This document shows positions 6,264-58,617 of a stretch of DNA of 64,000 bases, one piece after another. The stretch covers positions 61,161-125,160 of the forward strand of contig CAIRQX010000103.1 in assembly GCA_903880855.1 (NCBI GenBank), written 5' to 3'. Each line of letters opens with the position of its first letter. The first letter of the stretch is position 1. Under the pieces are notes generated by a model. The model was not told where the DNA came from and made no database searches. It was given only the letters and a program-made list of their open reading frames with translations. Both the position numbers and the translations under genes were made by a program. Source of the stretch: an uncultured Burkholderiales bacterium. Lineage in GTDB: Bacteria > Pseudomonadota > Gammaproteobacteria > Burkholderiales > Burkholderiaceae_C.

Positions 6264-6270
6264 GCCGCTT

Positions 6271-10280: not shown

Positions 10281-11405
10281 ATGATTTTTACTTGTGCCCC
10301 TACCTGCAAACACCCATACCACCAACACGGAAAAACGACCAAAGGTGCCGCTGGTATGTTCACGTCGCTAGCCACTAAAAAATTAGCCAAGCGTAAAGAC
10401 GGCCATTTGAATATCGACGTCCATTGCCATTACTTCAATCCGGCTGTTGGGCAAAAAGCATCAGTTCTCAAACCTATTGAGCAAGAGGTTGGCCATATTT
10501 TTGCCAACCAGTTAACGCGCGATACCAATGCCAAACAAATGCGTGACAGAGCGCCCATGTTGTCAGACGTTGCTGTTCGCCTGAAAGATATGGACCGTAT
10601 GGGCGTGGATATTCAAGCTGTCTCACCCGCGCCATTCCAGTATTACTACTTCGCTGAGCCTGCTTTTGGCGCCGAGTTAGCGCGTGATGTGAATGAGGGC
10701 ATGGCCAAACTGGTGGCCCAACATCCTGACCGTTTGATTGGCTTAGGCACTGTGCCTTTGCAGGACGCTGGTTTAGCCGTCAAAGAACTCAAGCACGCAG
10801 TCAAGAATTTAGGTTTGAAAGGTATTGAGATCAATACACACGTCAACGGCAAAAACCTGACCGATCCATCGCTCAAATTAGAAAAATTCTTTGCTGCCGT
10901 GAGTGAGTTGGGCGTTCCTTTGTTCATTCATCCCAATGGATTCACCGAAGCCAGTCGTCTCGAAAACCATTATTTCAATAACGTGATTGGTAATCCCTTG
11001 GACACCACCATCGCTGTGAGCCATTTGATTTTTGATGGTGTCATGGAGCGCAACCCTAAACTGAAAGTGTTGTTGGCACATGCTGGTGGCTATCTGGCAC
11101 ATTATTGGGCGCGTATGGACCATGTGTATGGCGCGCGTCCTGATGGTCGTTCCGTCATCAAGCGTAAGCCTTCTACCTACCTTGAGCGCTTTTATTTCGA
11201 CACCATCACATTCGACCCAGGCATGCTTCGCAACATGATTGAGCGTTTTGGTGCTGGCCATGTGATGTTGGGAACTGACTATCCCTACGATATGGCAGAG
11301 GTGGATCCATTAGGTCTTGTATCTGCTGTCAAGCGTTTGAACAAAGACGACAGAGACTTGATCACTGGTGGAAACGCTAAAAAACTGTTCAAGATCAAAT
11401 CTTAA
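10281..11405 (+). CDS. Amidohydrolase-2 (ACMSD-type metal-dependent decarboxylase/hydrolase) family protein
   Basis: 374 aa. HxH metal motif IDVHCHYF and C-terminal LGTDYPYD. AGGAGA Shine-Dalgarno before the ATG at 10281; alternative ATG at 10356. Confidence 0.75.
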   Translation: MIFTCAPTCKHPYHQHGKTTKGAAGMFTSLATKKLAKRKDGHLNIDVHCHYFNPAVGQKASVLKPIEQEVGHIFANQLTRDTNAKQMRDRAPMLSDVAVRLKDMDRMGVDIQAVSPAPFQYYYFAEPAFGAELARDVNEGMAKLVAQHPDRLIGLGTVPLQDAGLAVKELKHAVKNLGLKGIEINTHVNGKNLTDPSLKLEKFFAAVSELGVPLFIHPNGFTEASRLENHYFNNVIGNPLDTTIAVSHLIFDGVMERNPKLKVLLAHAGGYLAHYWARMDHVYGARPDGRSVIKRKPSTYLERFYFDTITFDPGMLRNMIERFGAGHVMLGTDYPYDMAEVDPLGLVSAVKRLNKDDRDLITGGNAKKLFKIKS

Positions 11406-11421
11406 AAAGTAAAAGCTACAT

Positions 11422-12312
11422 ATGAAAGTCGCCATACTGGGCCTAGGCCGAATGGGCAGTGCGATAGCCGAGCGGTTGTTAGACACGGGCCATTCGCTCG
11501 TGGTTTGGAACCGATCTGCTGGTAAAGCCAAATCGCTACTTGATCGTGGCGCCGTTTGGGCTGCAACTCCGCAAGAGGCAGTTTCTAAAGTTGATTTAAC
11601 TTTGTCTATGTTGACAGACGCGGCTGCTATTGAAAATACCTATTCTGGAGTGAACGGCGCGCTGACTGGGGATGTGAAGGGTAAGTTGTTTGTGGACATG
11701 AGCACTGTTCGTCCAGAAACATCTATCCATCTCAATTCCAAAGTGGCGGCTGTTGGAGCTGCACTTTTAGAGTGCCCAGTAGGCGGTACGGTCGGTCCTG
11801 CCAAGCAAGGTCAGTTATTTGGTTTTGTGGGAGGGGAGGCTACTGATTTTCTTCGTGCCAAGCCTTTGTTGGAACAACTCTGTCGCCGCGTGGAGCATGT
11901 GGGTGCCATTGGTGCAGGGGCCAGCATGAAGTTAGCCGTGAATCTCCCGTTATTGGTCTACTGGCAGGCATTGGGCGAAGCCATTTTGATGGCCAAACCG
12001 GCAGGACTTTCAGCTGAGAGATTGATGGATATTTTGGCTGACACGCCTGGTGCACCTGGCGTTATCAAGTTTCGCGGTTCCGCTGTGGTTGCGTCTTTAA
12101 ATGGCATTGACCAAGGGCCTGCGCATTTCAATATTGACTCCATACGCAAAGACCTTCGCGCCATGATGGCCGAGGCTAAGGCCATGGGCTACGAGTTGCC
12201 TACGGCAAGTGCCACCATGCGGGTATTTGACCAAGCTGCCGCCGCAGGCCTTGGTGATGGTGACGGAACGCAGCTCGCCGCATGGTGGATCGCTAATTCG
12301 GGAAAGAAGTGA
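11422..12312 (+). CDS. NAD(P)-dependent beta-hydroxyacid dehydrogenase (3-hydroxyisobutyrate / 6-phosphogluconate dehydrogenase-like)
   Basis: 296 aa. The N-terminus MKVAILGLGRMGSAIAERLL carries the GxGxxG dinucleotide fold. Confidence 0.8.
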   Translation: MKVAILGLGRMGSAIAERLLDTGHSLVVWNRSAGKAKSLLDRGAVWAATPQEAVSKVDLTLSMLTDAAAIENTYSGVNGALTGDVKGKLFVDMSTVRPETSIHLNSKVAAVGAALLECPVGGTVGPAKQGQLFGFVGGEATDFLRAKPLLEQLCRRVEHVGAIGAGASMKLAVNLPLLVYWQALGEAILMAKPAGLSAERLMDILADTPGAPGVIKFRGSAVVASLNGIDQGPAHFNIDSIRKDLRAMMAEAKAMGYELPTASATMRVFDQAAAAGLGDGDGTQLAAWWIANSGKK

Positions 12313-12776
12313 CAGTATTTCAATTGAACGGTGCAACAACCTCGACTGCGGTCGATGGTAAGTTGCCCTTGGTCCATGTCTTGCGAAACCCATGCGATGC
12401 CAAAGATGTGCGCTTTGGTTGTGGTGCAGGTAACTGTGGCGCATGCACCGTCATAGTCGACGGCGTTGCACAGCAGTCTTGCGGCTTATCTACCGAGTCG
12501 ATAGAGGGGTGTGACGTGTTCACACCTGCCGCCTTGCAAAGTGATCCCGTTGGATCAGTTGTTTTGCAAGCTTTTTTAGATGAGCAAGCTGCGCAATGCG
12601 GTTACTGCATCAATGGCATCTTGATGTCTTTGACTGCATTGTTAAAACGCGAGCTAAATCCTTCCAAAGAAAAAATCATAGAGACCTTGAATCGCCATCT
12701 ATGTCGCTGTGGTGCACATGCCCGTATTTTGCGAGCCACAGAACTTGCGATGCATCGCCTGCAAGCCAAAGGTTGA
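12309..12776 (+). CDS. (2Fe-2S)-binding small subunit of a molybdenum hydroxylase (IorA-like)
   Basis: 155 aa. Two cysteine clusters: CGAGNCGACTV and CGYCINGILM...CRCGAH. GTGA overlap with the upstream gene. Confidence 0.85.
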   Translation: MTVFQLNGATTSTAVDGKLPLVHVLRNPCDAKDVRFGCGAGNCGACTVIVDGVAQQSCGLSTESIEGCDVFTPAALQSDPVGSVVLQAFLDEQAAQCGYCINGILMSLTALLKRELNPSKEKIIETLNRHLCRCGAHARILRATELAMHRLQAKG

Positions 12777-12778
12777 AT

Positions 12779-14911
12779 ATGGCAACAGGTATACCAACCA
12801 GCATACAGACAGCACCTTTGTTGAAACAATGGGTTCAATTATTAGCGGATGGCCGCTTTCAAATTTATAGCGGTAAAGTTGAACTTGGACAGGGTATTTC
12901 AGCGGCCTTGGTCAAAGTGGCTTGTGAAGAGCTCTGCATTCATCCTGGGCAGGTTGATTTAGTAGCAGGGCATACCGCATTGAGCCCAGATGAAGGCTAC
13001 ACCGCTGGTAGTCTTTCTATTGAAGCAGGTGCGACTGCACTCAGGCACGCCTGTATCTATATGCGTCTGTTGTTTGCCATACAAGCAGCAGAGCACCTTG
13101 CTGTTAACTTGGAAGACTTAACGCTCGACCAAGGTATGTTTGGTGCGTTGCAGTCAAAAGAAAAAATTGGGTTTCATGCGCTAGCTAAAGACACCAATTA
13201 CGCGCTTATTCGCGTTGACACACCATTAGACCAAAGCCGTGATGTCAAAAATCTAGTGCAACTTCCGGATGAGGAATTCATACGTTTTGATCTCAAAGGT
13301 AAATTCACTGGAGCAGGCTTTGTACACGACATGGTTCGCAGCAATATGTTGCACGCCCGCATTTTGCGAGGCCCCCATGCTGAAGCCCGAGCACGTCTTG
13401 TCGATGCTGCGCACTTACGATCATTTGAGGGAGTTACCAAATTAGTCATTCAAGGTGATTTCATTGCGCTGTTGGGGCCAGATGAAGGAATGCTTTTGCG
13501 CGCATATGAAAAAGCCTATGCAACGATTGAATGGCAATTACCAAACTTACCTGCATTCCAAGAGATTGAAACCCTACTCACCAGTTTGCCTTCTGTAGAT
13601 GAAAAGGTAGTCGCCCAAGGGAAGGCATTACCTTCTTCACAGCGTCTCACGCGACGGTATTCCAAACCTTATATTGCACATGCATCGATAGGTTTGGCAT
13701 GTGCCTTAGCGGAACCAATGCGTCACTCTGCTAACAAAGCAGGACTGACGGTGTACACCCATTCGCAAGGCGTTTTCAAGCTTAGGCAGGAGATTGCCGC
13801 TGCCCTTGGCATATCTGTAGATATGTTGGATGTTGTGCATAGCCCAGGTGCGGGTTGCTATGGACACAACGGAGCAGACGATGTGGCGTTAGACGCTGCG
13901 TTTCTAGCCCACCACTTGCAAGTGCCAGTGCGTGTGCAATGGACACGTCAAGATGAAATGAGTGTGTCTCCGTTAGGTTCTGCTAGTTTGATAGAGTTGA
14001 GCGCAGGAGTAAACGACCAAGGGCGCATCGCAGATTGGCAAGCGCAGGTTTGGAGCCATAGCCATTTAAATCGGCCTGGTTGGTTACCTGGTAGCAATCT
14101 ACTCGGTGCATGGGCCTTAGACCCCAAAGCTCCAAGACCTGTTCAGAAAGACCAAGTGCTACCAACGGGCGGTGGATTGCGCAACATCATTCCTTATTAC
14201 GATTTGCCGGCACTCGACGTCATGCACCACTTTGTTCCTGAGGGACCTTTGCGTGTGTCAGCCCTGCGATCCTTAGGAGGGTTTGCCAATACGTTTGCTA
14301 TTGAATCTTTCATGGATGAACTGGCCGAAACCGCAACAGTAGACCCTCTTGAGTTTAGGCTTCGCCATCTAACCGATACAAGGGCCAAGCATGTTTTACA
14401 AGCCACAGCTGATGCAGCGAACTGGGATTCACGTGGTGAGGGTCTAAACGGCCACGGATACGGAATAGCCTTCGGCCGTTACAAAAACCATGCAGGGTAT
14501 TGCGCGGTGGTAGTGCAAATAGAGGTGGGTGAGAGCATCCGTGTGCAACAGGTATGGTGCACGGTAGACGCCGGTCGCATCGTGCATCGCGATGGATTGC
14601 TCAACCAAATTGAAGGTGGTTTGTTGCAAGCCATCAGTTGGACATTGAAAGAATCCGTGACATGGGGGCCTGCAGGCATCACAAGCAATTGCTGGGACAC
14701 CTATTCGATATTAGGGTTTGACGAAATTCCGCAACTCCATATTGATTTGGTGGATGCTATGGACCAGCCCAGTATTGGTGCAGGTGAAGTGGCAGCAGGG
14801 CCTCTTGCTGCAGCGATTGCAAATGCTGCCCACCACGCCTTAGGTGTTCGGCCGCGTCATTTGCCTTTGACGCCAGACCGCCTTTTGCAGTTAATACATT
14901 CGCAAGACTAG
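12779..14911 (+). CDS. Molybdopterin-dependent oxidoreductase large subunit (isoquinoline 1-oxidoreductase beta / IorB-like)
   Basis: About 710 aa from the ATG at 12779, 2 nt after the small-subunit stop. Xanthine dehydrogenase-family large-subunit-like sequence. The track ORF start at 12596 lies inside the upstream CDS. Confidence 0.8.
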   Translation: MATGIPTSIQTAPLLKQWVQLLADGRFQIYSGKVELGQGISAALVKVACEELCIHPGQVDLVAGHTALSPDEGYTAGSLSIEAGATALRHACIYMRLLFAIQAAEHLAVNLEDLTLDQGMFGALQSKEKIGFHALAKDTNYALIRVDTPLDQSRDVKNLVQLPDEEFIRFDLKGKFTGAGFVHDMVRSNMLHARILRGPHAEARARLVDAAHLRSFEGVTKLVIQGDFIALLGPDEGMLLRAYEKAYATIEWQLPNLPAFQEIETLLTSLPSVDEKVVAQGKALPSSQRLTRRYSKPYIAHASIGLACALAEPMRHSANKAGLTVYTHSQGVFKLRQEIAAALGISVDMLDVVHSPGAGCYGHNGADDVALDAAFLAHHLQVPVRVQWTRQDEMSVSPLGSASLIELSAGVNDQGRIADWQAQVWSHSHLNRPGWLPGSNLLGAWALDPKAPRPVQKDQVLPTGGGLRNIIPYYDLPALDVMHHFVPEGPLRVSALRSLGGFANTFAIESFMDELAETATVDPLEFRLRHLTDTRAKHVLQATADAANWDSRGEGLNGHGYGIAFGRYKNHAGYCAVVVQIEVGESIRVQQVWCTVDAGRIVHRDGLLNQIEGGLLQAISWTLKESVTWGPAGITSNCWDTYSILGFDEIPQLHIDLVDAMDQPSIGAGEVAAGPLAAAIANAAHHALGVRPRHLPLTPDRLLQLIHSQD

Positions 14912-14919
14912 AGGCCTGA

Positions 14920-16146
14920 TTAAAGCAACAAGCCACCTTGTGGCTGTAAGCCCAAGGCACTTTGTCCGTAGGCCGCACCATGGACATCCCAAGTGAGGCC
15001 GATGTGAGATGAAGCGGCATGGATATCTCTGAATTGCCTTTGAAGCGGTAGCTGCAAAGAAAGACCTGCAGCACCAGCCGCTGGCATCAGCGTGTCAATA
15101 CTGCGAACAGCCAAACTAGTTGCAAACGCAGCATTGCGTTTCCAGCGCAGCTTGGTCTCCATAGTTGGAAACTCATTACGTTCTACAGATTCTTCTAAAT
15201 CAGTCCAGTCGCGTCGAATCACTGTCTCTGCAAACTCGACACAGGCAGCGGCTTCTGCGATACGCGCTTGTACGGGGCCGAGTTCAGCAATGCGTGAGCC
15301 GGTATAAGTACCAGCGCGGTTACGCATACTGGTGGTGAACTGTTCAACTGCCGCCTTTGCTGTACCCAATGGAACGACAGCAAGCACATAAGCAAAAGCT
15401 GCAAATGTTGGCATTTGGAATAGCTTGTTGCTATACAACTTCGCGCCTGGCAAGTTTTGACCAGCAGCGAAAATTTCGGCTGAGACACTGCGGTGTTCAG
15501 GCACAAAGGCATCCGTCATATGGACATCATGGCTACCCGTACCACCTAAGCCATACGCTTGCCAGTTGTCTTGGCTCTTAAAGTCAGCTTGTGGAATTAA
15601 AAAGAGGCGACGTTGTGGGGCGCCTCCAGTTTGTTCTGTCATGGCACCTACCAACATCCAAGTTGAGGCATCTACACCGCTAGCAAAGGGATACTTTCCG
15701 CTGACCTTGTACCCGCCTTCTACAGGGATGGCTTTGCCGCAAGGAAATGCAAAACCAGTGGCTGCAAGGGCGAACGGATCATCACCCCATACATCTTCTT
15801 GCGCTTGCAACTCGAACTGTCCGATATTCCAGGCGTGAGAGGCTAAATTAGAGTAAGCCCACGCGGTAGAGGAGCATCCTTTACAAATCTCGAGAACGGC
15901 ATCCATCAACACGCCAAGACCTAACTCGGAACCACCAAAGCGCTTAGGCTGCATCAAACGCAACAACCCACTGGCGTTGAGTTCTTCAATAGATTCTTCA
16001 GGAACACGACGAATTTTTTCAGCATGGGCTGCACGTTCAGCAAACTTCGGCGCAAGACTTCTTGCAACTGCGACGGCCTCTTCTGCTGTCAACACGGGTG
16101 AAGAGAGAACTGATTTGGCTGGAGTAGAAATAACGCGTAAATTCAT
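14920..16146 (-). CDS. Acyl-CoA dehydrogenase-fold flavin-dependent monooxygenase (oxygenase component, HsaA/C2-like group)
   Basis: 408 aa with an acyl-CoA dehydrogenase-type N/M/C domain pattern (e.g. GGYKVSGKYPFASG), as seen in two-component aromatic hydroxylases. Confidence 0.65.
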   Translation of the reverse strand: MNLRVISTPAKSVLSSPVLTAEEAVAVARSLAPKFAERAAHAEKIRRVPEESIEELNASGLLRLMQPKRFGGSELGLGVLMDAVLEICKGCSSTAWAYSNLASHAWNIGQFELQAQEDVWGDDPFALAATGFAFPCGKAIPVEGGYKVSGKYPFASGVDASTWMLVGAMTEQTGGAPQRRLFLIPQADFKSQDNWQAYGLGGTGSHDVHMTDAFVPEHRSVSAEIFAAGQNLPGAKLYSNKLFQMPTFAAFAYVLAVVPLGTAKAAVEQFTTSMRNRAGTYTGSRIAELGPVQARIAEAAACVEFAETVIRRDWTDLEESVERNEFPTMETKLRWKRNAAFATSLAVRSIDTLMPAAGAAGLSLQLPLQRQFRDIHAASSHIGLTWDVHGAAYGQSALGLQPQGGLLL

Positions 16147-46590: not shown

Positions 46591-47583
46591 ATGAATAAGA
46601 CTTTTACAAATACCCGCCGCCAATGGCTTGGGCTTTCCGCTGCAGCGCTTGCCACTTTTGCGCTGGAAGTTTATGCAGAACCAGGCTGGCCCAACAAACC
46701 CGTCAACTTGATCGTGCCTTTTCCAGCCGGTGGAGGCACGGATACCTTTGGCAGACCCTTCTCCGCGCAGTTTTCAAAACTTACTGGTAAATCACTGGTG
46801 ATCGATAACCGTGGCGGCGCTGGAGGCAACTTAGGCGCTGGCGTTGCTGCTAAAGCCGCGCCCGACGGTTATACCTTGTTTATGGGCGCGGTGCACCACT
46901 CCATTGCGCCGTCCATGTACCCCAAACTTGACTACGACTTAGAGCGTGACTTCATACCTTTAGCGATCGTTGCCAGCGTGCCGCACGTTTTAGTCGTCAA
47001 CCCTAAAAATATGCCTGTTGCTGACTTCAAGGCATTTCTGGAGGAAGTGAAATCCAAGCCTGGTCGTTTTAACTACGGATCTGCAGGCGGCGGCACATCG
47101 CACCATTTAGCGGGTGAGCTTTTCAAAATGCAAACCAAAACATTTATTACCCATATTCCCTATCGTGGAGCTGGTCCGGCATTGCAAGACTTGATTGCTG
47201 GAAATGTAGACATGATGTTCGATGGACTCGGTTCATCTGCCCAACATATCAAAGGCGGACGCATCAAAGCATTGATGGTGTCTGGTAATAAGCGAAATCC
47301 AGCTTTTCCAGATATTCCTTGCGCTGCAGAATTTGGTTTGCCTGATTACAACGTTACAACTTGGTATGGCCTATGGGCTCCTAAAGGAACCCCCGCAGAT
47401 GTACAAGCCCGCGTTATTGAAGAAGTGCGTAAAGCCGCTGCCACCGATGACATAAAAACCAGTTGGTCTAATAGTGGCGCTGAGTTTCCCAACTTAACCG
47501 GCCCGCAGTTTGGTTCTTTTGTAAATAGTGAAATCAAAAAATGGGCAGGTGTTGTCAAAGCCTCAGGTGCCAAGTTAGATTAA
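46591..47583 (+). CDS. Bug family tripartite tricarboxylate transporter substrate-binding protein (TctC-like)
   Basis: 330 aa. Signal peptide, then VPFPAGGGTDTFGRPF...IDNRGGAGG...IPYRGAGPA. Confidence 0.85.
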   Translation: MNKTFTNTRRQWLGLSAAALATFALEVYAEPGWPNKPVNLIVPFPAGGGTDTFGRPFSAQFSKLTGKSLVIDNRGGAGGNLGAGVAAKAAPDGYTLFMGAVHHSIAPSMYPKLDYDLERDFIPLAIVASVPHVLVVNPKNMPVADFKAFLEEVKSKPGRFNYGSAGGGTSHHLAGELFKMQTKTFITHIPYRGAGPALQDLIAGNVDMMFDGLGSSAQHIKGGRIKALMVSGNKRNPAFPDIPCAAEFGLPDYNVTTWYGLWAPKGTPADVQARVIEEVRKAAATDDIKTSWSNSGAEFPNLTGPQFGSFVNSEIKKWAGVVKASGAKLD

Positions 47584-47607
47584 AAGTTAGATTTTTAGCG
47601 TGAGACG

Positions 47608-49143
47608 ATGAACCACAACCTGTATGCAGCGCTACGCGCCCAATTCCCCAGCAATTTAGACACCACCGCCGTTGAAACCGATGATGGCTTGCATTACAGC
47701 TGGCGCGACTTAGAGCGCGCCAGTGCGATGTTGGCTAATTTGCTGGAAGGATTGAATATTCCTCAGGGTGCACGCGTTGCAGTTCAGGTGGAGAAGTCGG
47801 TCGAAGCCATGATGCTTTACCTCGCCACATTGCGGGCAGGTTATGTTTTCTTGCCACTCAATACAGCCTATCAAAGTGCAGAAATTCAATACTTTATAGA
47901 AAACGCGGAGCCTGCAGTCGTGGTGTGTAGCGGCCCCAACTTTGGCTGGGTCAGCAAAATCGCCTTTAAGGCAGGGACGCAATACGTTTTCACCTTGAAC
48001 GACAACAGAACCGGTAGCTTGTTAGACCGTGCTGTGCATTGTTCAGACAAACACTCAGTAATTGAAAACGCTGCAGACGACATGGCCGCCATTTTGTACA
48101 CCAGCGGTACAACCGGACGCAGCAAAGGCGCTATGTTGTCACATGGCAATTTGCTTAGCAACGCCCAAACCCTAAAAACCTACTGGGGCTGGCGCGTTGG
48201 CGATGTGTTGATCCACGCTTTGCCAATCTTCCATGTGCATGGATTATTCGTGGCTATACACGGTGCTTTACTCAACGGCAGCAAGATGATTTGGATGACA
48301 AAGTTTGACCCCAAGTTCGTTATCCAAAAAATGCCAGAAGCCACGGTGTTTATGGGCGTACCCACTTTGTATGTGCGCATGTTGGCTGAAACAACGCTAA
48401 CAAAACAACAAGCTTCGCACATGCGTTTGTTTGTTGCGGGCTCTGCACCATTGCTCATAGAAACATTCAAAGAATGGCAAGACCGAACAGGCCACACCAT
48501 CTTGGAGCGCTACGGCATGAGCGAAACCGTCATGCTCACATCCAACCCGTATGCGGCAGATGCGCGTTACTCAGGTCAAAGCGAAAGACGAGGCGGAACT
48601 GTTGGATTTCCTTTGCCTAGCGTGCAGTTGCGCGTGCACAGCGATGACGGAGTGGAATTACCCCTTGGTGAAATTGGGGGCATCCAAGTTAAAGGCCCGA
48701 ATGTTTTTTCCGGTTACTGGCGTATGCCTGAGAAAACAAAAGAAGAATTCACGGCAGATGGTTTCTTCAAAACCGGTGATGTCGGCAAGATCGATGAGCG
48801 CGGTTATGTTGTGATTGTTGGTCGTAGCAAAGACTTGATCATCAGCGGTGGGTACAACGTGTATCCAGCTGAAATTGAGGGCTATATAAATGACATTCCT
48901 GGCGTTGCAGAAAGCGCGTTGGTGGGTGTTCCGCATCCGGATTTTGGGGAAGTGGGTGTGGCAGTGGTAATTACTAAGCCTGGGGCCGCGGTTTCTGGAG
49001 ACGCTGTTATTGCTGCTTTGAAGTCGCAGTTGGCTAACTTTAAGATTCCTAAGAAGTGTTTTGTTGTGGACGCTTTACCTCGGAACACTATGGGCAAGGT
49101 TCAGAAGAACTTATTGCGTGATCAATATAAGTTGCTTTTCTGA
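47608..49143 (+). CDS. matB: Malonyl-CoA synthetase (malonate--CoA ligase), AMP-binding family
   Basis: 511 aa. AMP-binding motifs YTSGTTGRSKG, ...GYWRMPEKT... and GDVGKIDERGY. Sits in a locus with malonyl-CoA decarboxylase. Confidence 0.8.
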   Translation: MNHNLYAALRAQFPSNLDTTAVETDDGLHYSWRDLERASAMLANLLEGLNIPQGARVAVQVEKSVEAMMLYLATLRAGYVFLPLNTAYQSAEIQYFIENAEPAVVVCSGPNFGWVSKIAFKAGTQYVFTLNDNRTGSLLDRAVHCSDKHSVIENAADDMAAILYTSGTTGRSKGAMLSHGNLLSNAQTLKTYWGWRVGDVLIHALPIFHVHGLFVAIHGALLNGSKMIWMTKFDPKFVIQKMPEATVFMGVPTLYVRMLAETTLTKQQASHMRLFVAGSAPLLIETFKEWQDRTGHTILERYGMSETVMLTSNPYAADARYSGQSERRGGTVGFPLPSVQLRVHSDDGVELPLGEIGGIQVKGPNVFSGYWRMPEKTKEEFTADGFFKTGDVGKIDERGYVVIVGRSKDLIISGGYNVYPAEIEGYINDIPGVAESALVGVPHPDFGEVGVAVVITKPGAAVSGDAVIAALKSQLANFKIPKKCFVVDALPRNTMGKVQKNLLRDQYKLLF

Positions 49144-49488: not shown

Positions 49489-52062
49489 CTAACTAGCCGC
49501 CTCAACCCGCTGCGTAATATGCGCCAAAGCCTCTTCCACCTGGTCAATCAAAATCAAGCAAAGATCCCCTTGATTCAGGCGCTCCATAGCCTTGTCAATC
49601 GCCAAAAACTCGCCATAAATCTCATCCACTTGACGCGTACGCTTGGCACCCTCTAAACCTTGACGCAGAAGTTTGAGCACTTCGCCATCCACTCGCCCCC
49701 GTTGGCAGGCATCTTGGTAGAGCACAACTTCGTCGAATGCGTCACCAATGATGCGGGTTTGCTCACGAATATCGTCATCGCGTCTATCGCCAGCACCGCT
49801 GATCACCACGCTACGTCGTTGTGCAGGAAGATTGGTGACAGCTTGCACCAATGCTTTGATGGCATCAGGGTTGTGCCCGTAGTCGGCAATGACTGTGGCG
49901 CCTTTGTAGTCAAACACATTGAAACGACCCGGAACACCTTGGATGTCACTGACAAATGTTGCGAGTCCTTTGCAGATGGTTTCCCATGGGATATTGATAG
50001 CCCAAGCGGCACCGATAGAAGCCATCGCGTTCTCTATTTGAAAGGCAATGGCACCGCTCCGTGTGACTGGAACCTCAGTCAGAGGAATACGAACCGAGTG
50101 TTGCCCTTGCATGGCAACAATATGGTCGTCTTCGACAAACAGCACGCGTTTACCTTGTGCGCGATGTGTTGCGATGATGGGATGGTGGGTATCTAGACCA
50201 AAGAAAATGACTTCGCCTGGGCAATTGACCGCCATGCGCGCAACTAAGGGGTCGGTGGCATTGAGAACTGCAGTTCCGGAAGTAGCAACATTTTGTACGA
50301 TGACGCGTTTGAGGACTGCTAAATCCTCTACGGTCGATATGTAGTTCAAACCTAGGTGGTCACCCATGCCGATATTGGTAACCACTGCAACATGGCAACG
50401 GTCAAATGCCAAGCCTTCTCGTAACATTCCGCCACGTGCGGTCTCTAGCACTGCTGCGTCGACGTCTGGGTGCATCAATACGTTACGCGCGCTTCGGGGG
50501 CCACTGCAGTCGCCGCTGTCAGTTTGTCGACCGTTCACGTACACACCATCTGTGTTGGTCATGCCTACGCGCAGCCCATGTGTGCGTAATAAGTGGGAGG
50601 TGAGACGAACGGTGGTTGTCTTTCCATTGGTGCCAGTTACCGCAATGACTGGCACGCGACCATCTTCGCCGTTGGGGAACATCGTGGCAATAACGGCTTC
50701 GCCAACATCACGACCTTTTCCAAATGAGGGGCTCAGATGCATACGCAAGCCTGGGGCAGCGTTGACTTCCACCACGCCACCGCTTTGTTCTTCAAGGGGA
50801 TGCAATACCGATTCGCAAACTACGTCGACGCCACAAATATCAAGTCCCACCATTTGGGCTGCGGCAATGGCGCGCGCAGCGACTTCTAGATGCACATCGT
50901 CAGTCACATCGGTCGCGGTACCGCCTGTGGACAGGTTAGCGTTATTGCGCAAAATGACACGCGTGCCTTTGACGGGAACTGAGTTTTCATCTAAACCTTG
51001 TTCTTTGAGTCGGTTTTTAGCGATGTCATCCAATTGAATTTTGGTGAGTGATGTGGCATGTCCTTCGCCACGGCGTGGGTCTGCGTTGACTTGTTCCACC
51101 AATTCACGCACGGTATTTTTTCCGTTACCAATGACCAACGGAGGATCACGTCTTGCTGCGGCTACCAATTTATTACCTACTACTAACAAGCGGAAATCGC
51201 TGCCAGGTAGATAGCGCTCAACCAATACGTCGTCTCTAAATGAGATGGCAGTGTTGTAAGCACCCATCACGCCTTCTTTGGTCGCGATGTTGACGCTAAT
51301 GCCTTTTCCTTGATTGCCATCACGTGGTTTGATCACGACAGGTAAGCCTATTTCCTGCGCCGCCGCCCATGCATCTTCTGCGCTAGTGACAGGGCGGCCT
51401 AGTGGTACGGGAACGCCAGCTGCATGCAAGAGTTTTTTGGTGAGTTCTTTGTCTTGGGCGATCGATTCAGCGATGGCGCTGGTGGCATCAATTTCAGCAG
51501 CTTGGATGCGGCGTTGTTTGCTACCCCAACCCAATTGCACCAATGAGCCCTCCGTCAATCGGCGGAAGGGAATGCCACGGGCAATGGCAGCGTTGACGAT
51601 GGACCCAGTGGATGGACCAAGGCGTAAGTCTTCGTCTAAGCCACGCAGTTGATCGATAGCAGATTCGACATCAAATTCGCTATGTTGGGCTGCGGCAGAG
51701 CACAAGTCTCTGGCTAGCTTGATAGCGAGGCAGCCGACTTCTTCCTCGGTGTATTCCACAGCGACTTGGTACAAACCCTTTTCATCGGTGGCGGTGGTGC
51801 GACTGAACGTTACGGGACATCCTGCTTGAATTTGCAAATGCAAGGTAGTAGCTTCAATCGCATGTGCCATGCTCAAGGGTGCTTTGCGGTCGGTTGGACT
51901 AAGTTGTCCTAAGCCGGGGAACAAGTGACGCAAGTATGTTTCAAAATCAGCATGGGTACTAAGATCTAGTTCATCGCCGTCGCAACGCACCAATGCCTCT
52001 ATGGCAGTGTGGCGTGTCCAGAGATTAGGGCCGCGCAATGCGCGAATACGTGAGACTTCCAT
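49489..52062 (-). CDS. cphA: Cyanophycin synthetase
   Basis: 857 aa. N-terminal RALRGPNLW, an ATP-grasp region (VVIKPRDGNQGKGISVNI, NLSTGGTATDVTDD) and a Mur-ligase-type domain with the intact P-loop VTGTNGKTTT. Confidence 0.9.
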   Translation of the reverse strand: MEVSRIRALRGPNLWTRHTAIEALVRCDGDELDLSTHADFETYLRHLFPGLGQLSPTDRKAPLSMAHAIEATTLHLQIQAGCPVTFSRTTATDEKGLYQVAVEYTEEEVGCLAIKLARDLCSAAAQHSEFDVESAIDQLRGLDEDLRLGPSTGSIVNAAIARGIPFRRLTEGSLVQLGWGSKQRRIQAAEIDATSAIAESIAQDKELTKKLLHAAGVPVPLGRPVTSAEDAWAAAQEIGLPVVIKPRDGNQGKGISVNIATKEGVMGAYNTAISFRDDVLVERYLPGSDFRLLVVGNKLVAAARRDPPLVIGNGKNTVRELVEQVNADPRRGEGHATSLTKIQLDDIAKNRLKEQGLDENSVPVKGTRVILRNNANLSTGGTATDVTDDVHLEVAARAIAAAQMVGLDICGVDVVCESVLHPLEEQSGGVVEVNAAPGLRMHLSPSFGKGRDVGEAVIATMFPNGEDGRVPVIAVTGTNGKTTTVRLTSHLLRTHGLRVGMTNTDGVYVNGRQTDSGDCSGPRSARNVLMHPDVDAAVLETARGGMLREGLAFDRCHVAVVTNIGMGDHLGLNYISTVEDLAVLKRVIVQNVATSGTAVLNATDPLVARMAVNCPGEVIFFGLDTHHPIIATHRAQGKRVLFVEDDHIVAMQGQHSVRIPLTEVPVTRSGAIAFQIENAMASIGAAWAINIPWETICKGLATFVSDIQGVPGRFNVFDYKGATVIADYGHNPDAIKALVQAVTNLPAQRRSVVISGAGDRRDDDIREQTRIIGDAFDEVVLYQDACQRGRVDGEVLKLLRQGLEGAKRTRQVDEIYGEFLAIDKAMERLNQGDLCLILIDQVEEALAHITQRVEAAS

Positions 52063-54305
52063 TACCCATTCATCCTTGCCAAGTCTTTACTGACTTGTTC
52101 GTTTTTTTGTCCAAAATTCTTTAATCCAGCGCGAATCAGCAAGGGGGTGATACCAAGAGACCAGCCAGTTGCGACTGCCGCTAATAAAGTATTGATGTGC
52201 AAGCCTTGTTTAAGCAGTCGCGCAATGAGATCCATATCTAGATGGAATAGAGGGGTTTCTTGATCGCCGCGCGCTAAGGTCACAAAACCTTCTTGGCAAA
52301 ACACCGCACGGCCGCCTTGTTGCCGGTGCACAGTCAGGTGGGCATTGCTTGCATCTTGTGCATAAAACAATACTTCGCCATCACTGAGTTCTGCTAACCC
52401 CACGACTGCGTCATCTTGCGCGTTCAATACTGCAGCACCTTCAGGCAATACCAAATCAATTTGGGTACGAATCACAGTGCGCATTTGGTCAGGCGTTTGG
52501 ATATCGTGGTCATCTATCAATATTTGAGTGGTCTCAGGCATATTGGTCACCACTCCCACTTGGCATCTGTCATAGGCCAAGCCTTCATTCAAGATGTGCA
52601 GCGGCGTAGTTTCAAACACGGCGGCGTCAAGTGCGCGGTTGATCAACAGTCGTTCACCATCTTCAAAACCCCGTGCATCGTTTTTCCCCAAATGGTGTTG
52701 GTTCATATACAAACCATCTTTGCAGGCTAGACCTGTACGGTGTCCTGAGAGATGCAGCAACCACGCAACGAGTTGTGCGAGCTCGGTGGTTTGTTCAGTG
52801 CCCACAATACCAACAACAGGGATACGGCCCGAATCATTCGATCCAAACAAATGGTCGACGATCGCTTTACCAACAGGACGCGGTTGACCCACTGCAGGTT
52901 TGACATGCATGAGCAGACCAGGACCGGCATTGACTTCGATCACAGCACCACGTGTTTCATCCAATGGACGGCTGATATCTTCTGTCACGATGTCAATGCC
53001 TGCGATGTCTAAACCAATCACGCGAGCTGCTAGGGTGGCTGCTGCCGCTACTTCAGGATGAACTTTGTCGGTCACATCGACATTGAGGTTGCCATTGCGT
53101 TGCACGATCACTGAGCGGTCTTTATCTACAACGCTATGGGGTTCCAGTCCTTGGCGTTGAATTTCTAAAAGAGTCATCTCCCCACGTGATGAGTTGGAGA
53201 ATTTAATGACGTCCAATGGAAAGGTTTCAGATTCGCCGCGACGAGGGTCAGTGTTGATTTGAGATTCAATCAATTGCTCTACTGTTGACACACCGTCGCC
53301 AACTACAAAAGCGGTCTCACCTTGGGTGGCAGCGACAACCCGGTCTCCGACCACCAATACGCGGTGCTCTTCTCCCTTGACATAACGCTCGATCAACACA
53401 GGTACGTTCTCGTCAGATCCAGACCAGCCAGCGCCTACAGTGTTGGCGGCTAACCAAGCAGCACGCACGGCCGATTCAGTTTCGACATTTAAAGATACGC
53501 CGCGGCCACGGTTACCGTCTGCAGGTTTGATCGCCACTGGCAAACCAATATCTTGAGATGCTTCCCAAGCTTGGTCAGCGCTCGTCACAATCTGCCCCTC
53601 TGGCACTGGAATGCCGCATTGGGTGAGCAAGCGTTTGGTGAGGTCTTTGTCGCTAGAAATGCTCTCAGCAATCGCACTGGTGCGATCGGTTTCCGCTGTC
53701 CAAATACGGCGTTGGCGTGAACCATAGCCAAGTTGCACCAAATTACCCTCTGTCAAACGAATAAAAGGTGTTTTGCGCTCCATCGCAGCGTCAACAATAC
53801 ACGCAGTACTCGGGCCTAAGCACAAAACATCGACGATGGCTTTGAGTTCCTCGACTGTGGTTGCAATATCAAAAGACAGATTATTTGCAGCCGACATCAC
53901 CAAACGGTGGGCTGCTTTGAAACTAGCGCGTCCTAGGGTTTCGTGTTCGGTACGAAATACCACTTTGTAGACACCGCGCTTGCTGATCTCGCGGGCTTTG
54001 CCAAACTCGGCGCGCGCGCCTGCAAGTAATTGCAACTCAATAGAGACATGTTCAATGATGTGTCCCATCCAAGTGCCACCCACCAAGCGGGTCAGAAACC
54101 CGCCACGATGACCCACACCGCAGTGGTGTTCGACCAAGCCAGGCAACCAAGCATTGACGCGATCGTTAAAGCCTTCAATTGAATTGGATGGGTGATCTTC
54201 CATCTCACCTAAATCAATCAAGGCCTCGATGATGGGGCGATAAGTCCAAATATTGGGGCCGCGCAAATAATTGACGCGCAGGATCTGAATGTCTTGAAAG
54301 GCCAT
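52062..54305 (-). CDS. Cyanophycin synthetase paralog (CphA'), with degenerate catalytic signatures
   Basis: About 747 aa from MAFQDIQILRVNYLRGPNIW (ATG at 54305; track ORF start 54368). Collinear with CphA, but the P-loop reads VGTEQTTE and the STGGTA segment is absent. Its stop overlaps the cphA start (TAATG). Confidence 0.8.
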   Translation of the reverse strand: MAFQDIQILRVNYLRGPNIWTYRPIIEALIDLGEMEDHPSNSIEGFNDRVNAWLPGLVEHHCGVGHRGGFLTRLVGGTWMGHIIEHVSIELQLLAGARAEFGKAREISKRGVYKVVFRTEHETLGRASFKAAHRLVMSAANNLSFDIATTVEELKAIVDVLCLGPSTACIVDAAMERKTPFIRLTEGNLVQLGYGSRQRRIWTAETDRTSAIAESISSDKDLTKRLLTQCGIPVPEGQIVTSADQAWEASQDIGLPVAIKPADGNRGRGVSLNVETESAVRAAWLAANTVGAGWSGSDENVPVLIERYVKGEEHRVLVVGDRVVAATQGETAFVVGDGVSTVEQLIESQINTDPRRGESETFPLDVIKFSNSSRGEMTLLEIQRQGLEPHSVVDKDRSVIVQRNGNLNVDVTDKVHPEVAAAATLAARVIGLDIAGIDIVTEDISRPLDETRGAVIEVNAGPGLLMHVKPAVGQPRPVGKAIVDHLFGSNDSGRIPVVGIVGTEQTTELAQLVAWLLHLSGHRTGLACKDGLYMNQHHLGKNDARGFEDGERLLINRALDAAVFETTPLHILNEGLAYDRCQVGVVTNMPETTQILIDDHDIQTPDQMRTVIRTQIDLVLPEGAAVLNAQDDAVVGLAELSDGEVLFYAQDASNAHLTVHRQQGGRAVFCQEGFVTLARGDQETPLFHLDMDLIARLLKQGLHINTLLAAVATGWSLGITPLLIRAGLKNFGQKNEQVSKDLARMNG

Positions 54306-54486
54306 AGATAAGGGGTTAGGGATGCTGAATGCTTCAGCAAATGCGTTGCAAACGGGGTATAGCCGCACAATAGCGGGCGATACAATTAAAAAAATACGAT
54401 GTTGCGTGCAACAAGTTCAGGCTCCTGCTTCTTGTTCACCGACCTTAGTTTGGTATCAAACGATTTAGGCCGGAAAATTTATAAGA

Positions 54487-56781
54487 ATGAATGCATCTCT
54501 TTCGGCTTATGCCAACTTTATGTTGCCTTCTGAGTGGAAGGCTTCAGCGTCGGCGCAACTCTCACCCCAAGAGAACGTCTTAGCTTGGTTGGAAGTTGAC
54601 TTAGACGCGCAATTGCAGTTCGCCAAAGGACTGCTAATTGTGACAGACCAACGCATTCTTTCGGCAAATCCTGCCGCTGCTGGGCTTGTATGGCAGAGTT
54701 GGACGCTACAGTCTGGTTGGGTCATGGACCATTTTGATTACGCTGGCGTAGGCACACTGTCTTTGCGCAGCAGTGATCAGCAACTCGCTACTTGGCGCTT
54801 TACCCTGAACCACAATGTCTTTGCAATGCGCTTGCAAGAGGCCTTTGCTGCACGGGTGGAGTTCATTACTCACGGACGCGCGCTCCAAACCAATCTGACA
54901 GCACGATGCCCGCAATGCAAATTGCCTTTGGAAGTGGAGGGTGATGAATGCCCTGTTTGTAATCGTGAGCAGCATGCACCGCTGTCAACTTGGGGCTTAT
55001 TTCGCTTGTGGCGCTTTGCGCATCCCTATCGTTGGCGATTATTGGCTGGGTTTTTATTGACGCTGGCCTCGACTGCAGCCACCTTGGTGCCTCCTTACTT
55101 GACCATGCCGCTGATGGACGATGTGCTGATTCCATTCCAAAACGGCCAAGATATTGACCACGACCTTGTTGCTTTGTACTTAGGCGGCTTACTCGCGGCA
55201 GCAGCATTGGCTTGGAGCTTGGGTTGGGCTAAAACCTATATCTTGGCCTTGGTCTCTGAGCGCATTGGCGCTGATTTACGCACCACAGCCTATGAGCACT
55301 TGATGCGTTTGTCGTTGGAATATTTTGGTGGCCGTCGTACGGGCGACTTGATGAATCGCATTGGCGCTGAGACAGACCGTATCAATGTCTTTTTGTCATT
55401 GCACCTGCTTGATTTCGCGACAGACATCTTGATGATTTTGATGACAGCGGCTATTTTGTTGAGCATCGATGTTCGTTTGGCCGCTGCCACTTTGTTGCCT
55501 CTTCCGTTCATTATTTGGCTTATTCATGTAGTGCGCGACAAACTAAGAACAGGCTTTGAGAAGATTGACCGAGTATGGTCCGAGTTAACCAATGTGTTGG
55601 CAGACACCATTCCAGGCATTCGCGTTGTCAAGGCCTTCGCGCAAGAACGTCGTGAGGCCAACCGGTTTCGCGATGCCAATAAACATAACTTGGCGGTGAA
55701 CGACCGCATCAATTTTGTTTGGTCTTTGTTTTCGCCCACCGTCACCTTGATGACGGAAGTGGGTTTGTTGGTGGTGTGGGGTTTTGGCATTTGGTTGGTG
55801 TCTCACCATCAAATTACTGTGGGTGTGCTGACGGCATTCTTGGCGTACATCGGACGGTTTTACACGCGTCTAGATTCCATGAGTCGCATCGTGTCGCATA
55901 CCCAAAAGGCGGCTGCGGGCGCCAAACGTATTTTTGAAATCTTGGACCATGTCTCTAGCGTGCCAGAGGCTACACACCCACAAAAACTTCCGAGTCCCTT
56001 AGAAGGTCGCATCGATATCCAAGATGTCGGCTTTAGGTATGGAAACCGCGCTGTTATTCGCGGTTTGAATTTAGCCATTCAACCCGGCGAGATGATTGGC
56101 TTGGTCGGACAAAGTGGTTCAGGCAAAAGCACCTTGGTGAATTTGATTTGTCGTTTCTACGACATCAGCGAAGGTGCTATCAAAGTTGATGGCATCGATA
56201 TCCGCAATATTGCTCTGTCAGATTTCCGTAGCCATATCGGCTTGGTACTGCAAGAGCCTTTCCTGTTCTTTGGCACCATTGCCGACAACATTGCGTACGG
56301 TAAACCCAACGCTAGCCGACAAGACATAGTTGCTTCAGCACGTGCAGCGCACGCGCATGAATTTATTTTGCGACTTCCCCAAGGCTATGACTCTTTGGTA
56401 GGGGAGCGCGGACAGGGCCTCTCCGGTGGCGAGCGCCAACGCATTTCTATTGCGCGCGCCTTGCTCATCAATCCGCGTATTTTGATTTTGGATGAGGCCA
56501 CTGCCTCGGTAGATACCGAGACCGAGCAAGAAATTCAAAAAGCACTGGATAACTTGGTGCAAGGTAGAACCACCATTGCAATTGCACATCGTTTGTCAAC
56601 ACTGCACAAAGCAGACCGCTTGGTCGTCTTGGAGCAGGGTGAGTTAGTCGAAGAGGGCAACCACGACACCCTGATGGCAAAGCAGGGCGCGTATTGGCGT
56701 TTGTATGAGGCGCAAGCTAAAAATGCAGAAGCCGACCGCGTGAAGTTGGGTGAAGTCTCTCGCAAAGAGGACATCGTATGA
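54487..56781 (+). CDS. ABC exporter (fused TMD-NBD) with an N-terminal cytoplasmic domain ending in a zinc ribbon; cyanophycin-locus associated
   Basis: 764 aa. About 165 aa of N-terminal extension with CPQCKLPLEVEGDECPVC, then six hydrophobic helices. Walker A GQSGSGKST, signature LSGGERQR, Walker B ILILDEATS. Confidence 0.85.
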   Translation: MNASLSAYANFMLPSEWKASASAQLSPQENVLAWLEVDLDAQLQFAKGLLIVTDQRILSANPAAAGLVWQSWTLQSGWVMDHFDYAGVGTLSLRSSDQQLATWRFTLNHNVFAMRLQEAFAARVEFITHGRALQTNLTARCPQCKLPLEVEGDECPVCNREQHAPLSTWGLFRLWRFAHPYRWRLLAGFLLTLASTAATLVPPYLTMPLMDDVLIPFQNGQDIDHDLVALYLGGLLAAAALAWSLGWAKTYILALVSERIGADLRTTAYEHLMRLSLEYFGGRRTGDLMNRIGAETDRINVFLSLHLLDFATDILMILMTAAILLSIDVRLAAATLLPLPFIIWLIHVVRDKLRTGFEKIDRVWSELTNVLADTIPGIRVVKAFAQERREANRFRDANKHNLAVNDRINFVWSLFSPTVTLMTEVGLLVVWGFGIWLVSHHQITVGVLTAFLAYIGRFYTRLDSMSRIVSHTQKAAAGAKRIFEILDHVSSVPEATHPQKLPSPLEGRIDIQDVGFRYGNRAVIRGLNLAIQPGEMIGLVGQSGSGKSTLVNLICRFYDISEGAIKVDGIDIRNIALSDFRSHIGLVLQEPFLFFGTIADNIAYGKPNASRQDIVASARAAHAHEFILRLPQGYDSLVGERGQGLSGGERQRISIARALLINPRILILDEATASVDTETEQEIQKALDNLVQGRTTIAIAHRLSTLHKADRLVVLEQGELVEEGNHDTLMAKQGAYWRLYEAQAKNAEADRVKLGEVSRKEDIV

Positions 56782-57245
56782 GCGATGCATTTTCTTTAAG
56801 CTTTAATGCATTGGGGCAACTTGCAGTACGTTTAGCGGACGGCACGTTACATGAAGGTGCAGTTGCTGTGCGAGCTTTCCCTATTGCTGACCCAGATCAC
56901 AGTATTTCTATTTTGAGTGCAGAAGGTAAAGAGTTGGTATGGATAGATGACCTTGCAACTGTTAGCGACGTTGATAGACAAGTCATTGAACGCGCCTTAC
57001 AAATGCGCGAATTCATGCCGGAGATTTTGCGACTAGATGGCGTGAATAGTTTTTCTACGCCAAGCACCTGGCGCGTTCAAACTAATCGCGGGCCGACTGA
57101 GTTTGTTCTCAAGGGCGAAGAAGACATCAAACGACTTAGCACCAATACCTTGATCGTGGCGGATGCGCATGGCGTACAGTTTTTGATCCGCGATTTGCCT
57201 TCGCTTGATAGGCACACAAGAAAGTTATTAGATCGATTTTTGTAA
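56778..57245 (+). CDS. DUF1854 family protein (cyanophycin-locus associated)
   Basis: 155 aa. ATGA overlap with the ABC gene. The family assignment comes from my memory of the DUF1854/ABC pairing next to cphA genes and has not been searched. Confidence 0.55.
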   Translation: MSDAFSLSFNALGQLAVRLADGTLHEGAVAVRAFPIADPDHSISILSAEGKELVWIDDLATVSDVDRQVIERALQMREFMPEILRLDGVNSFSTPSTWRVQTNRGPTEFVLKGEEDIKRLSTNTLIVADAHGVQFLIRDLPSLDRHTRKLLDRFL

Positions 57246-57252: not shown

Positions 57253-58617
57253 CTAAGTCGGCCAAGTGCTTCCGTGCTCTGGCACCAAGGCCCGCCAACC
57301 TAATTTGTGTTCGATCTTCTGACGTAGTGCATCCGAAGCCTCTGGCTCACCATGCACCACATACACCTGTGAAGGCAGCTCTTTCATGCTTTGCAACCAA
57401 TCGATCAATTGCGATGCGTCCGCATGCGCAGAGGACGATTGCAGTTGCACCACTTCGGCCTCGATTTGAATATCTTTGCTGTGGATGCGTACTACGCCTG
57501 AACCGCTTGCTAAGGTGGCACCACGCGTTCCAGGTGCTTGGTAGCCGGTCAATACCACCATATTGCGGTGGTCTGGCAGGTAATGTGCCAAATGGTGCAA
57601 TACCCGTCCGCCAGTGGCCATGCCGCTCGCTGCCAATATCACCATAGGGCCATGCCGGCTTGCGAGTTTTTTAGATTGGTCGGTGTTCTCTACCATCGTG
57701 GCAACATTTCCTAAATCGCGAATGCCTTGCGCATCCAAGCGATGCGCGTGGGGATGTTTTTTATACAACTCGGTGGTGTGCACAGCCATGGGACTGTCTA
57801 GAAAAACGGGTAGCCCATGCGGTATATCTCCGCGCTCTTTCAAGATTGAAATGGCGTAAAGAATAGCCTGTGCACGCCCGACTGCAAAGACAGGAATCAC
57901 TGCAACGCCGCCTCGTGCAGATACTTTTTTCAATGCGAGGCCTAGTTCTGCAATCACGTTTTCTTCAGGGTGTTCACGATTGCCGTAAGTGGATTCAATC
58001 AACACAGTATCGGCTTGTGGTGGTTTATCAGGGGGCAACATCAGCAAATCGTCAGGGCGGCCTAAATCGCCGCTAAACAAGATTCGCTTGCCTGCCACTT
58101 CCACCAAAACGCTAGATGCTCCCAGGATGTGTCCGGCAGATGAGAAGGTGACTTTCCAACCTGGAATAGGGCTAAAAGTATTCCCAAGGGCTTGGGGTTG
58201 CAACAAGTTAAGCGATTGGATTGCTTGGTGTTTGTCATAGAGGGGAAGTGCAGGTGCATGCTTGGTGTAACCATGGCGATTCACAAAGCCTGCGTCCTCT
58301 TCTTGAATATGCCCACTGTCTGGCAAAAGAATGGCGCACAAATCACACGTCGCTGGCGTAGCGTAGACCTTGCCGCGATACCCTTGCGCATAAAAAAGTG
58401 GTAAGTAGCCACTGTGGTCTAAATGTGCGTGGGTTAAGACAACGGCATTGATCTCTTTAGGCTCGAACGTGGGTGGATTCCAGTTACGCAGTCGCAGCTG
58501 TTTATAGCCCTGGAATAAGCCGCAATCGACCAATAATCTTTGGCCTTCGTGTTGCACCAAATATTTGGAGCCTGTGACGGTGCCAGTACCACCAAGAAAA
58601 GTAATTGTGACGCTCAT
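57253..58617 (-). CDS. MBL-fold metallo-hydrolase of the beta-CASP (RNA-metabolising) type
   Basis: 454 aa. THAHLDHSGYLP (HxHxDH) motif and a beta-CASP-like C-terminal half ending in ...VHGEPEA. Confidence 0.8.
   Translation of the reverse strand: MSVTITFLGGTGTVTGSKYLVQHEGQRLLVDCGLFQGYKQLRLRNWNPPTFEPKEINAVVLTHAHLDHSGYLPLFYAQGYRGKVYATPATCDLCAILLPDSGHIQEEDAGFVNRHGYTKHAPALPLYDKHQAIQSLNLLQPQALGNTFSPIPGWKVTFSSAGHILGASSVLVEVAGKRILFSGDLGRPDDLLMLPPDKPPQADTVLIESTYGNREHPEENVIAELGLALKKVSARGGVAVIPVFAVGRAQAILYAISILKERGDIPHGLPVFLDSPMAVHTTELYKKHPHAHRLDAQGIRDLGNVATMVENTDQSKKLASRHGPMVILAASGMATGGRVLHHLAHYLPDHRNMVVLTGYQAPGTRGATLASGSGVVRIHSKDIQIEAEVVQLQSSSAHADASQLIDWLQSMKELPSQVYVVHGEPEASDALRQKIEHKLGWRALVPEHGSTWPT

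Follow-up and report, generated by a model that had tools for sequence, protein, structure and literature searches.

The window analysed here, a stretch of 64,000 nucleotides from an uncultured Burkholderiales bacterium (contig CAIRQX010000103.1), carries two overlapping genes that encode an ATP-binding cassette (ABC) protein and a small partner of the DUF1854 family, arranged divergently from two cyanophycin synthetase genes. The ABC gene (54487–56781, + strand) encodes a half-transporter of 764 residues in which an N-terminal domain precedes a transmembrane domain (TMD) and a nucleotide-binding domain (NBD), and the DUF1854 gene (56778–57245, + strand) encodes 155 residues. The start and stop codons of the two genes overlap as ATGA at 56778–56781 (+ strand), where the junction reads gtATGAgc and the DUF1854 start (ATG) runs into the ABC stop (TGA), a translational coupling of the two genes. 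Related loci place them 0 to ~110 nt apart. The reading frames, the ATGA overlap and the 155-residue DUF1854 gene had been proposed in an earlier reading of this DNA, hereafter the original prediction, and each was found where that reading had placed it.

Profile searches with Pfam and NCBIfam, which the original prediction had suggested for both proteins, returned matches above cut-off in every case. The ABC protein scored 1370 bits (cut-off 880) on NF052233, 'cyanophycin metabolism-associated ABC transporter', with residues 9–753 aligned to positions 11–753 of the 766-position profile. Its partner scored 209 bits (cut-off 150) on NF052234, 'cyanophycin metabolism-associated DUF1854 family protein', and 157 bits (cut-off 26.8) on Pfam PF08909, over all 130 positions of the profile. 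At equivalog level, each protein belongs to its curated NCBIfam family, and the pair in the window is a typical representative, with the same architecture, the same divergent placement next to cphA'-cphA and no difference from the rest of the family. Because the reading frames are long and the profile matches very strong, the ABC, DUF1854 and synthetase genes are genuine features rather than products of chance. The nearest relatives belong to Limnohabitans and other Comamonadaceae, and the proteins of one Limnohabitans metagenome-assembled genome (locus L001) are 95–97% identical to those of the window.

The TMD of the ABC protein, of the type IV exporter fold, spans residues 185–458 (55039–55860, + strand) and matches Pfam PF00664 (ABC_membrane) with 151 bits. 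It is followed by the NBD (56059–56721, + strand), which matches Pfam PF00005 (ABC_tran) over residues 525–673 and in whose translation the catalytic motifs can be read directly: Walker A (GQSGSGKST), the Q-loop, the signature LSGGERQR, Walker B with the catalytic glutamate (ILILDEAT) and the H-loop (AHRLST). All of these motifs are intact and are invariant across 17 aligned homologues. The best solved relatives were generic type IV exporters, namely ABCB1/ABCB4, Sav1866, TM287/288, TmrAB, BmrCD and MsbA. By its sequence, then, the protein is an exporter-type, ABCB-like half-transporter with intact ATPase motifs, as the original prediction had recognised in describing a fused TMD–NBD exporter. 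No gene for a heterodimer partner occurs at the window locus, and the protein presumably works as a homodimer. More specific identities were tried and rejected. The models for the lipid A flippase MsbA gave 454 bits against a cut-off of 602 (TIGR02203) and 367 against 867 (NF008381), while the HlyB model TIGR01846 gave 403 bits, under its cut-off, as did the bacteriocin NCBIfam models under theirs. The other NCBIfam ABC models (MsbA, HlyB, NdvA/ChvA, HepA, CydDC and others) all fell far below their cut-offs on this protein.

What sets the family apart from generic exporters is the extension ahead of the TMD. The original prediction had described an N-terminal cytoplasmic extension of about 165 residues containing the motif GLLIVTDQRIL and ending in CPQC-x10-CPVC. 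The extension and both motifs are present in the translation (residues 48–58 and 141–158, respectively); its length is closer to 170–180 residues, since a Pfam scan assigned no family to residues 1–184 and the TMD begins at residue 185. Residues 1–178 were aligned with 116 homologues of 24–72% identity. The AlphaFold2 model has a mean predicted local distance difference test (pLDDT) score of 88.9, with values above 95 across the strands and the last helix, and comprises a short helix (15–24), seven β-strands (31–39, 45–53, 56–63, 66–73, 79–85, 88–94 and 99–106) and a long helix (107–129). Beyond residue 129, the model continues into a less regular, cysteine-rich segment and then an elbow helix.

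When the model was compared with the PDB using Foldseek, almost all of the top 50 matches were PH, PTB or GRAM-like domains, with probabilities of ~1.0. Among the named matches were the PH domains of IQSEC/BRAG, OCRL, TBC1D23 and FARP, the GRAM-like domain of Lam6, the GLUE domain of Vps36 and several PTB domains. The E-values were modest, from 1e-3 to 8e-2, with template-modelling scores of up to 0.6 when normalised to the target. A PDB sequence search with the domain returned nothing meaningful, and bPH_3, the sole Pfam bacterial PH family to appear, remained below its gathering threshold (E = 0.37; 11.7 bits against a cut-off of 23), so that the resemblance lies at the level of fold and not of family membership. 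The modelled structure thus supports a PH-like domain at about residues 13–129 (54523–54873, + strand) that belongs to no Pfam PH family, in line with the PH/GRAM-like fold that had been suggested from GLLIVTDQRIL.

Directly before the elbow helix and the first transmembrane helix lies the putative Cys4 zinc ribbon (residues 141–158; 54907–54960, + strand), in whose sequence, CPQC-KLPLEVEGDE-CPVC, the two CxxC pairs stand exactly 10 residues apart. Both pairs were found in 235 of 243 homologues, with C141, C144, C155 and C158 each conserved at ≥90%, and Pfam Zn_ribbon_3 is precomputed on many homologues. The ribbon anticipated by the original prediction is conserved in the family, and metal binding is predicted from the cysteine pattern. 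A few members do without it. In P0368, the PH-like region is present and the cysteines are absent, showing that the ribbon is dispensable; in P0351, the N-terminus is short (~95 residues) and unrelated. Some lineages thus dispense with the ribbon, and even with the PH-like domain.

The DUF1854 protein was modelled on an alignment of 61 diverse representatives, and the AlphaFold2 model reached a pLDDT of 94.5. It comprises two small β subdomains, each followed by a helix: strands within residues 5–58 precede helix 64–77, and strands within residues 82–137 precede helix 145–154. Despite its confidence, the model found no convincing neighbour in the PDB by Foldseek (best E-value 1.7e-3, template-modelling score ~0.2), and a PDB sequence search gave nothing meaningful. 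The Plk4 cryptic polo box, ribosomal protein eS4 and HIN-200 appeared as weak matches with low template-modelling scores and were set aside, and no fold family was assigned. Homology between DUF1854 and the N-terminal domain of the ABC protein was rejected (profile–profile probability 2.3%), as was PilZ-like binding of cyclic di-GMP, the RxxxR and DxSxxG motifs being absent on inspection. Both accessory domains proved slightly acidic in net charge and isoelectric point, an uninformative result.

From 1.84 billion representative proteins, a search recovered 1376 clusters of DUF1854 relatives. In some of these, the ABC protein and DUF1854 are naturally fused into one chain, with DUF1854 placed C-terminal to the NBD (P0351, P0362, P0368, P0391, P0392, P0396, P0423 and P0475). 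This position places DUF1854 in the cytoplasm, and the window protein lacks a signal peptide and any hydrophobic or transmembrane segment. We infer that DUF1854 is a cytoplasmic subunit that pairs 1:1 with the ABC protein near its NBD.

Upstream of the ABC gene, on the opposite strand, are the two synthetase genes. The nearer, cphA' (52062–54305, − strand; ATG at 54305), encodes a cyanophycin synthetase paralogue of 747 residues with a Cyanophycin_syn N domain and an ATP-grasp domain; it matched the cyanophycin synthetase profile NF010623 only over positions 1–723 of 871, and Pfam domains Mur_ligase_M and Mur_ligase_C were not detectable in it. The farther, cphA (49489–52062, − strand), encodes a full-length cyanophycin synthetase of 857 residues. 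Their reading frames overlap as TAATG, and so cphA' and cphA are translationally coupled, like the ABC and DUF1854 genes.

The association of the pair with these synthetases is strictly conserved. A genome scan with a close DUF1854 alignment, taking one genome per species, found a relative in at least 571 genomes, and linkage in Betaproteobacteria was counted on the best 80 loci of these, all 80 of which are betaproteobacterial. The ABC gene lies directly upstream of the DUF1854 gene in all 80, wherever the DNA reaches. Among the loci with at least 2.6 kb of sequence upstream of the ABC gene, a divergent cphA' was present at 68/68, and cphA' followed by cphA, in the same order, was present at all 59 of the 59 loci with at least 5.4 kb. 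As the best-80 sample is taxonomically narrow, six distant members of the family were also examined. These come from Planctomycetes-like and Bryobacterales genomes, include two of the fusion proteins, and have ABC proteins 54–56% identical to that of the window. A divergent cphA-type gene, its product 41–52% identical to the CphA of the window, lies directly upstream at 6/6. Rather than being as frequent without cphA as with it, the outcome that the original prediction had named as counting against a link, the pair adjoins a cphA-type gene at every scorable locus (68/68, 59/59 and 6/6). The link is ancient and without exception in the sample examined, and the four genes (cphA, cphA', ABC and DUF1854) form an inseparable group in several phyla.

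Two individual loci vary the arrangement of synthetases. At locus L086, which is metagenomic, the sole synthetase beside the fusion protein P0475 is an ATP-grasp protein of 730 residues (7256–9448, − strand) that is 41% identical to CphA. It has no Cyanophycin_syn or Mur-ligase Pfam match and stands alone as a CphA'-like protein, a hint that the ATP-grasp activity, which forms the backbone, may be the conserved partner of the exporter. At locus L083, a Bryobacterales metagenome-assembled genome, two full-length cphA-type genes flank the ABC–DUF1854 pair (5555–15447), with a gene for a 485-residue, ATP-grasp-only protein alongside, a synthetase complement more elaborate than that of Betaproteobacteria.

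Published mutant fitness data connect the same genes. Price et al. (10.1101/072470) reported cofitness between DUF1854 and the ABC gene, cphA and cphA' in Acidovorax 3H11 and Cupriavidus basilensis 4G11, and found motility and pleiotropic stress phenotypes in the mutants; they also noted the fusions and proposed export of a polymer to the envelope. The original prediction described the pair as annotated as cyanophycin metabolism-associated purely on genome context. The label is indeed that of NCBIfam; 'purely' does not stand, because the mutant fitness data of Price et al. also support the association. The family has thus already been named by NCBI, and the idea of export is already in print with genetic support. 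New here are the fold support for a PH-like N-terminal domain, the figures for conservation of the ribbon, a confident DUF1854 model that has no PDB neighbour, and the linkage to cphA in distant phyla.

One alternative is that a generic multidrug or lipid exporter happens to sit beside cphA. Such an origin has in its favour that the second-best NCBIfam matches of the ABC protein are MsbA-related and other generic exporter models, all under cut-off. Against this, both adjacency and divergent orientation are kept at every scorable locus, in Betaproteobacteria as in Planctomycetes-like and Acidobacteria-like genomes; the family has an N-terminal domain and a partner protein of its own; and the cofitness is published (10.1101/072470). 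The conservation data effectively refute a chance neighbourhood, to which we give almost no credence.

Between the two divergent operons lies an intergenic spacer of 181 nt (54306–54486) separating cphA' from the ABC gene, its length and position as originally predicted. We aligned the spacers of 14 related loci with the window region and found a GCGATACAAT block at 54377–54386 that is near-invariant in 13/15 aligned Limnohabitans-like sequences, followed in the spacer by the conserved segments GGTGCAAC and GGCTCCTGCTT. The GCGATACAAT block is probably the −10 element of the ABC operon, with a conserved leader. A simple sigma-70 scan of the spacer gave no promoter site. Nor was there a sign of an RNA leader or riboswitch in the 181 nt, for which we obtained no Rfam match, a fold z-score of −0.34 and no inverted repeats.

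Genes farther out are kept only among close relatives. A gene for a β-CASP metallo-β-lactamase of 454 residues (57253–58617, − strand) converges on the pair, its end lying 8 nt from the stop codon of DUF1854. Its best NCBIfam match, to the type VII CRISPR protein Cas14, reached 371 bits against a cut-off of 800, and that identity was rejected. Only Limnohabitans-like loci keep the gene next to the pair, to which it probably bears no relation. Just past cphA (46591–49143, + strand) are genes for a TctC-family tripartite tricarboxylate receptor and for a malonyl-CoA synthase-like acyl-CoA ligase; the ligase scored 858 bits on NF005702 and adjoins cphA only in the closest Limnohabitans relatives.

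Several kinds of conserved neighbour were looked for and not found. Peptidase_S51, the cyanophycinase family, is absent from the Pfam domains listed for the six distant loci, nor do the examined loci conserve a gene for a substrate-binding protein, a cyanophycinase or a dipeptidase. These absences weigh on the idea that the transporter is an importer built on an exporter fold, like IrtAB, YbtPQ and Rv1819c, which would take in substrate, primer or environmental cyanophycin fragments and whose N-terminal domain, in the manner of the SID domain of IrtA, would process the cargo or receive it. Exporter-fold importers with an N-terminal cytoplasmic domain do exist, IrtAB being an example, and cofitness with the synthetases would be expected of an importer too. 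However, besides the missing uptake and degradation genes, the cell makes its own Asp and Arg, and importers on this fold are rare exceptions. We consider import very improbable. The likeness to IrtAB is confined to a type IV fold and an N-terminal cytoplasmic domain that acts on or receives cargo; IrtAB differs in that it is a heterodimer that imports siderophores and carries a flavin reductase domain, and it has no homology to the PH-like or zinc-ribbon domain.

The reading that we favour, with a little more belief than doubt, is that the pair forms a dedicated export module that moves the product of the adjacent CphA and CphA' to the periplasm or envelope. It is supported by the family membership of both proteins, the exporter fold with its intact ATPase, the conserved N-terminal domain and ribbon, the fusions of DUF1854 to the NBD, the linkage to cphA, the published cofitness and the rarity of cyanophycinase. 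On this last point, Sharon et al. (PMC10206079) found a recognisable cyanophycinase in 2.8% of 903 cphA1-positive betaproteobacterial genomes, a result they termed 'unanticipated'. Export in place of intracellular storage would explain why the enzyme is nearly absent from betaproteobacteria that carry cphA.

As we envisage the module, CphA and CphA' would make a cyanophycin-like poly- or oligo-amino acid of Asp and Arg in the cytoplasm. An ABC homodimer would carry two DUF1854 subunits beneath its NBDs, with the PH-like and zinc-ribbon domain placed at the cytoplasmic face of the membrane, by the elbow helix. The PH-like/zinc-ribbon domain, DUF1854 or both could bind the nascent chain or dock the synthetase, and ATP hydrolysis would then drive the product over the inner membrane into the periplasm or envelope.

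A number of considerations weigh against this proposal. Classical cyanophycin is a large, insoluble, branched polymer, and such a cargo suits a type IV exporter poorly. No other conserved neighbour, such as an outer-membrane or periplasmic component, was found in the examined loci. The chain-recognition and docking roles given to the PH-like domain and DUF1854 are drawn by analogy, and DUF1854 offers no convincing structural neighbour. The cofitness is compatible with non-transport roles as well. Literature searches found no later biochemical study of the ABC/DUF1854 family, and Price et al. (10.1101/072470) cite work suggesting that the product of betaproteobacterial CphA/CphA' is not classical cyanophycin.

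One of these non-transport roles deserves separate weighing. ABC and DUF1854 could act as a membrane-anchored mechanochemical or regulatory partner of CphA/CphA' that, for example, tethers the synthetase or granule to the membrane, sets chain length or gates synthesis by ATP. This role fits the pair's strict co-occurrence with the synthetase genes and its divergent co-regulation with them, as well as the typical ligands of PH-like domains, which are protein, peptide or membrane, and the lack of conserved envelope-spanning components nearby. The transmembrane part speaks against it: the TMD is complete, highly conserved and of exporter type, and all ATPase motifs are intact, whereas known non-transport ABC proteins, of the ABC-F, LolCDE and FtsEX classes, usually lack exporter-type TMDs or have diverged from them. 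We hold such a partner to be unlikely.

In another alternative, the exported cargo is a pathway-related small molecule and not a polymer, for instance the β-Asp-Arg dipeptide, short primers or oligomers, or a by-product, with the PH-like domain and DUF1854 acting as regulators. Type IV ABCB exporters mostly carry small amphipathic or peptide substrates, and the nearest solved relatives of the window protein are multidrug, lipid and peptide exporters; the linkage and cofitness data fit a small cargo as well. Two additional conserved cytoplasmic modules would, however, be unusual for a simple pump, and most of these genomes lack a cyanophycinase that could yield dipeptides (PMC10206079). Moreover, cofitness with the synthetases, together with envelope-type phenotypes (motility and pleiotropic stress), suggests a structural product outside the cytoplasm. 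Small-molecule export is the strongest of the rivals, and still a doubtful one.

For export of the synthetase product itself, the closest working analogies are two modules of known transporters, neither of them homologous to those of the window: the C39-like domain of HlyB and the peptidase-containing ABC transporters (PCATs), and the carbohydrate-binding domain of Wzt. HlyB and the PCATs are likewise TMD–NBD half-transporters with an extra cytoplasmic domain ahead of the first transmembrane helix, and their likeness would extend to the unfolded polyamide cargo proposed here. They differ in that their N-terminal domain is a C39 papain-like or C39-like domain, whereas that of the window protein is PH-like with a zinc ribbon and the protein has no Peptidase_C39 match; in addition, no gene for a membrane-fusion or TolC-type partner is linked here, and the proposed cargo is non-ribosomal. 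In WzmWzt (PMC9445017), a β-rich module sits at the C-terminus of the NBD, as DUF1854 does in the fusions. The module of Wzt recognises the polymer and couples its cytoplasmic synthesis to ABC export, which makes it a functional analogue of what we propose for DUF1854. WzmWzt has, in contrast, a type V fold and a lipid-linked glycan as cargo, and we found no similarity between DUF1854 and the Wzt carbohydrate-binding domain in sequence or fold.

The canonical cyanophycin cycle, consisting of CphA1, the cyanophycinases CphB/E and isoaspartyl dipeptidase, shares with these loci the CphA-type ATP-grasp/Mur-ligase synthetases. It differs in its degradative arm: the six distant loci have no cyanophycinase linked to the pair, and the enzyme is rare among betaproteobacteria (PMC10206079). 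No export step is known for the canonical cycle (PMC9974463).

A broader proposition, which we put forward tentatively and at somewhat less than an even chance, is that CphA/CphA', the ABC protein and DUF1854 together constitute an uncharacterised secretion pathway for a non-ribosomal poly-amino acid. This cyanophycin-like polymer would come to lie in the envelope or periplasm of Betaproteobacteria, Planctomycetes and Acidobacteria, after a cytoplasmic ATP-grasp polymerase had passed its chain to the dedicated ABC pump by way of the PH-like and DUF1854 modules. If this is correct, the secreted poly-amino acids would gain a new class and ABC substrate recognition a new form, built from a PH-like domain, a zinc ribbon and DUF1854. 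Biotechnological production of cyanophycin would be affected too, because a secreted product is easier to recover. Cyanophycin has so far been treated as a purely intracellular store of nitrogen and carbon. The exporter linked to cphA offers a testable answer to the puzzle that ~97% of cphA-positive betaproteobacteria have no cyanophycinase (PMC10206079), namely that the polymer or a derivative of it acts outside the cytoplasm. The 'cyanophycin' of these lineages would then be an envelope or extracellular material and not a nitrogen store, and the missing cyanophycinase would be explained.

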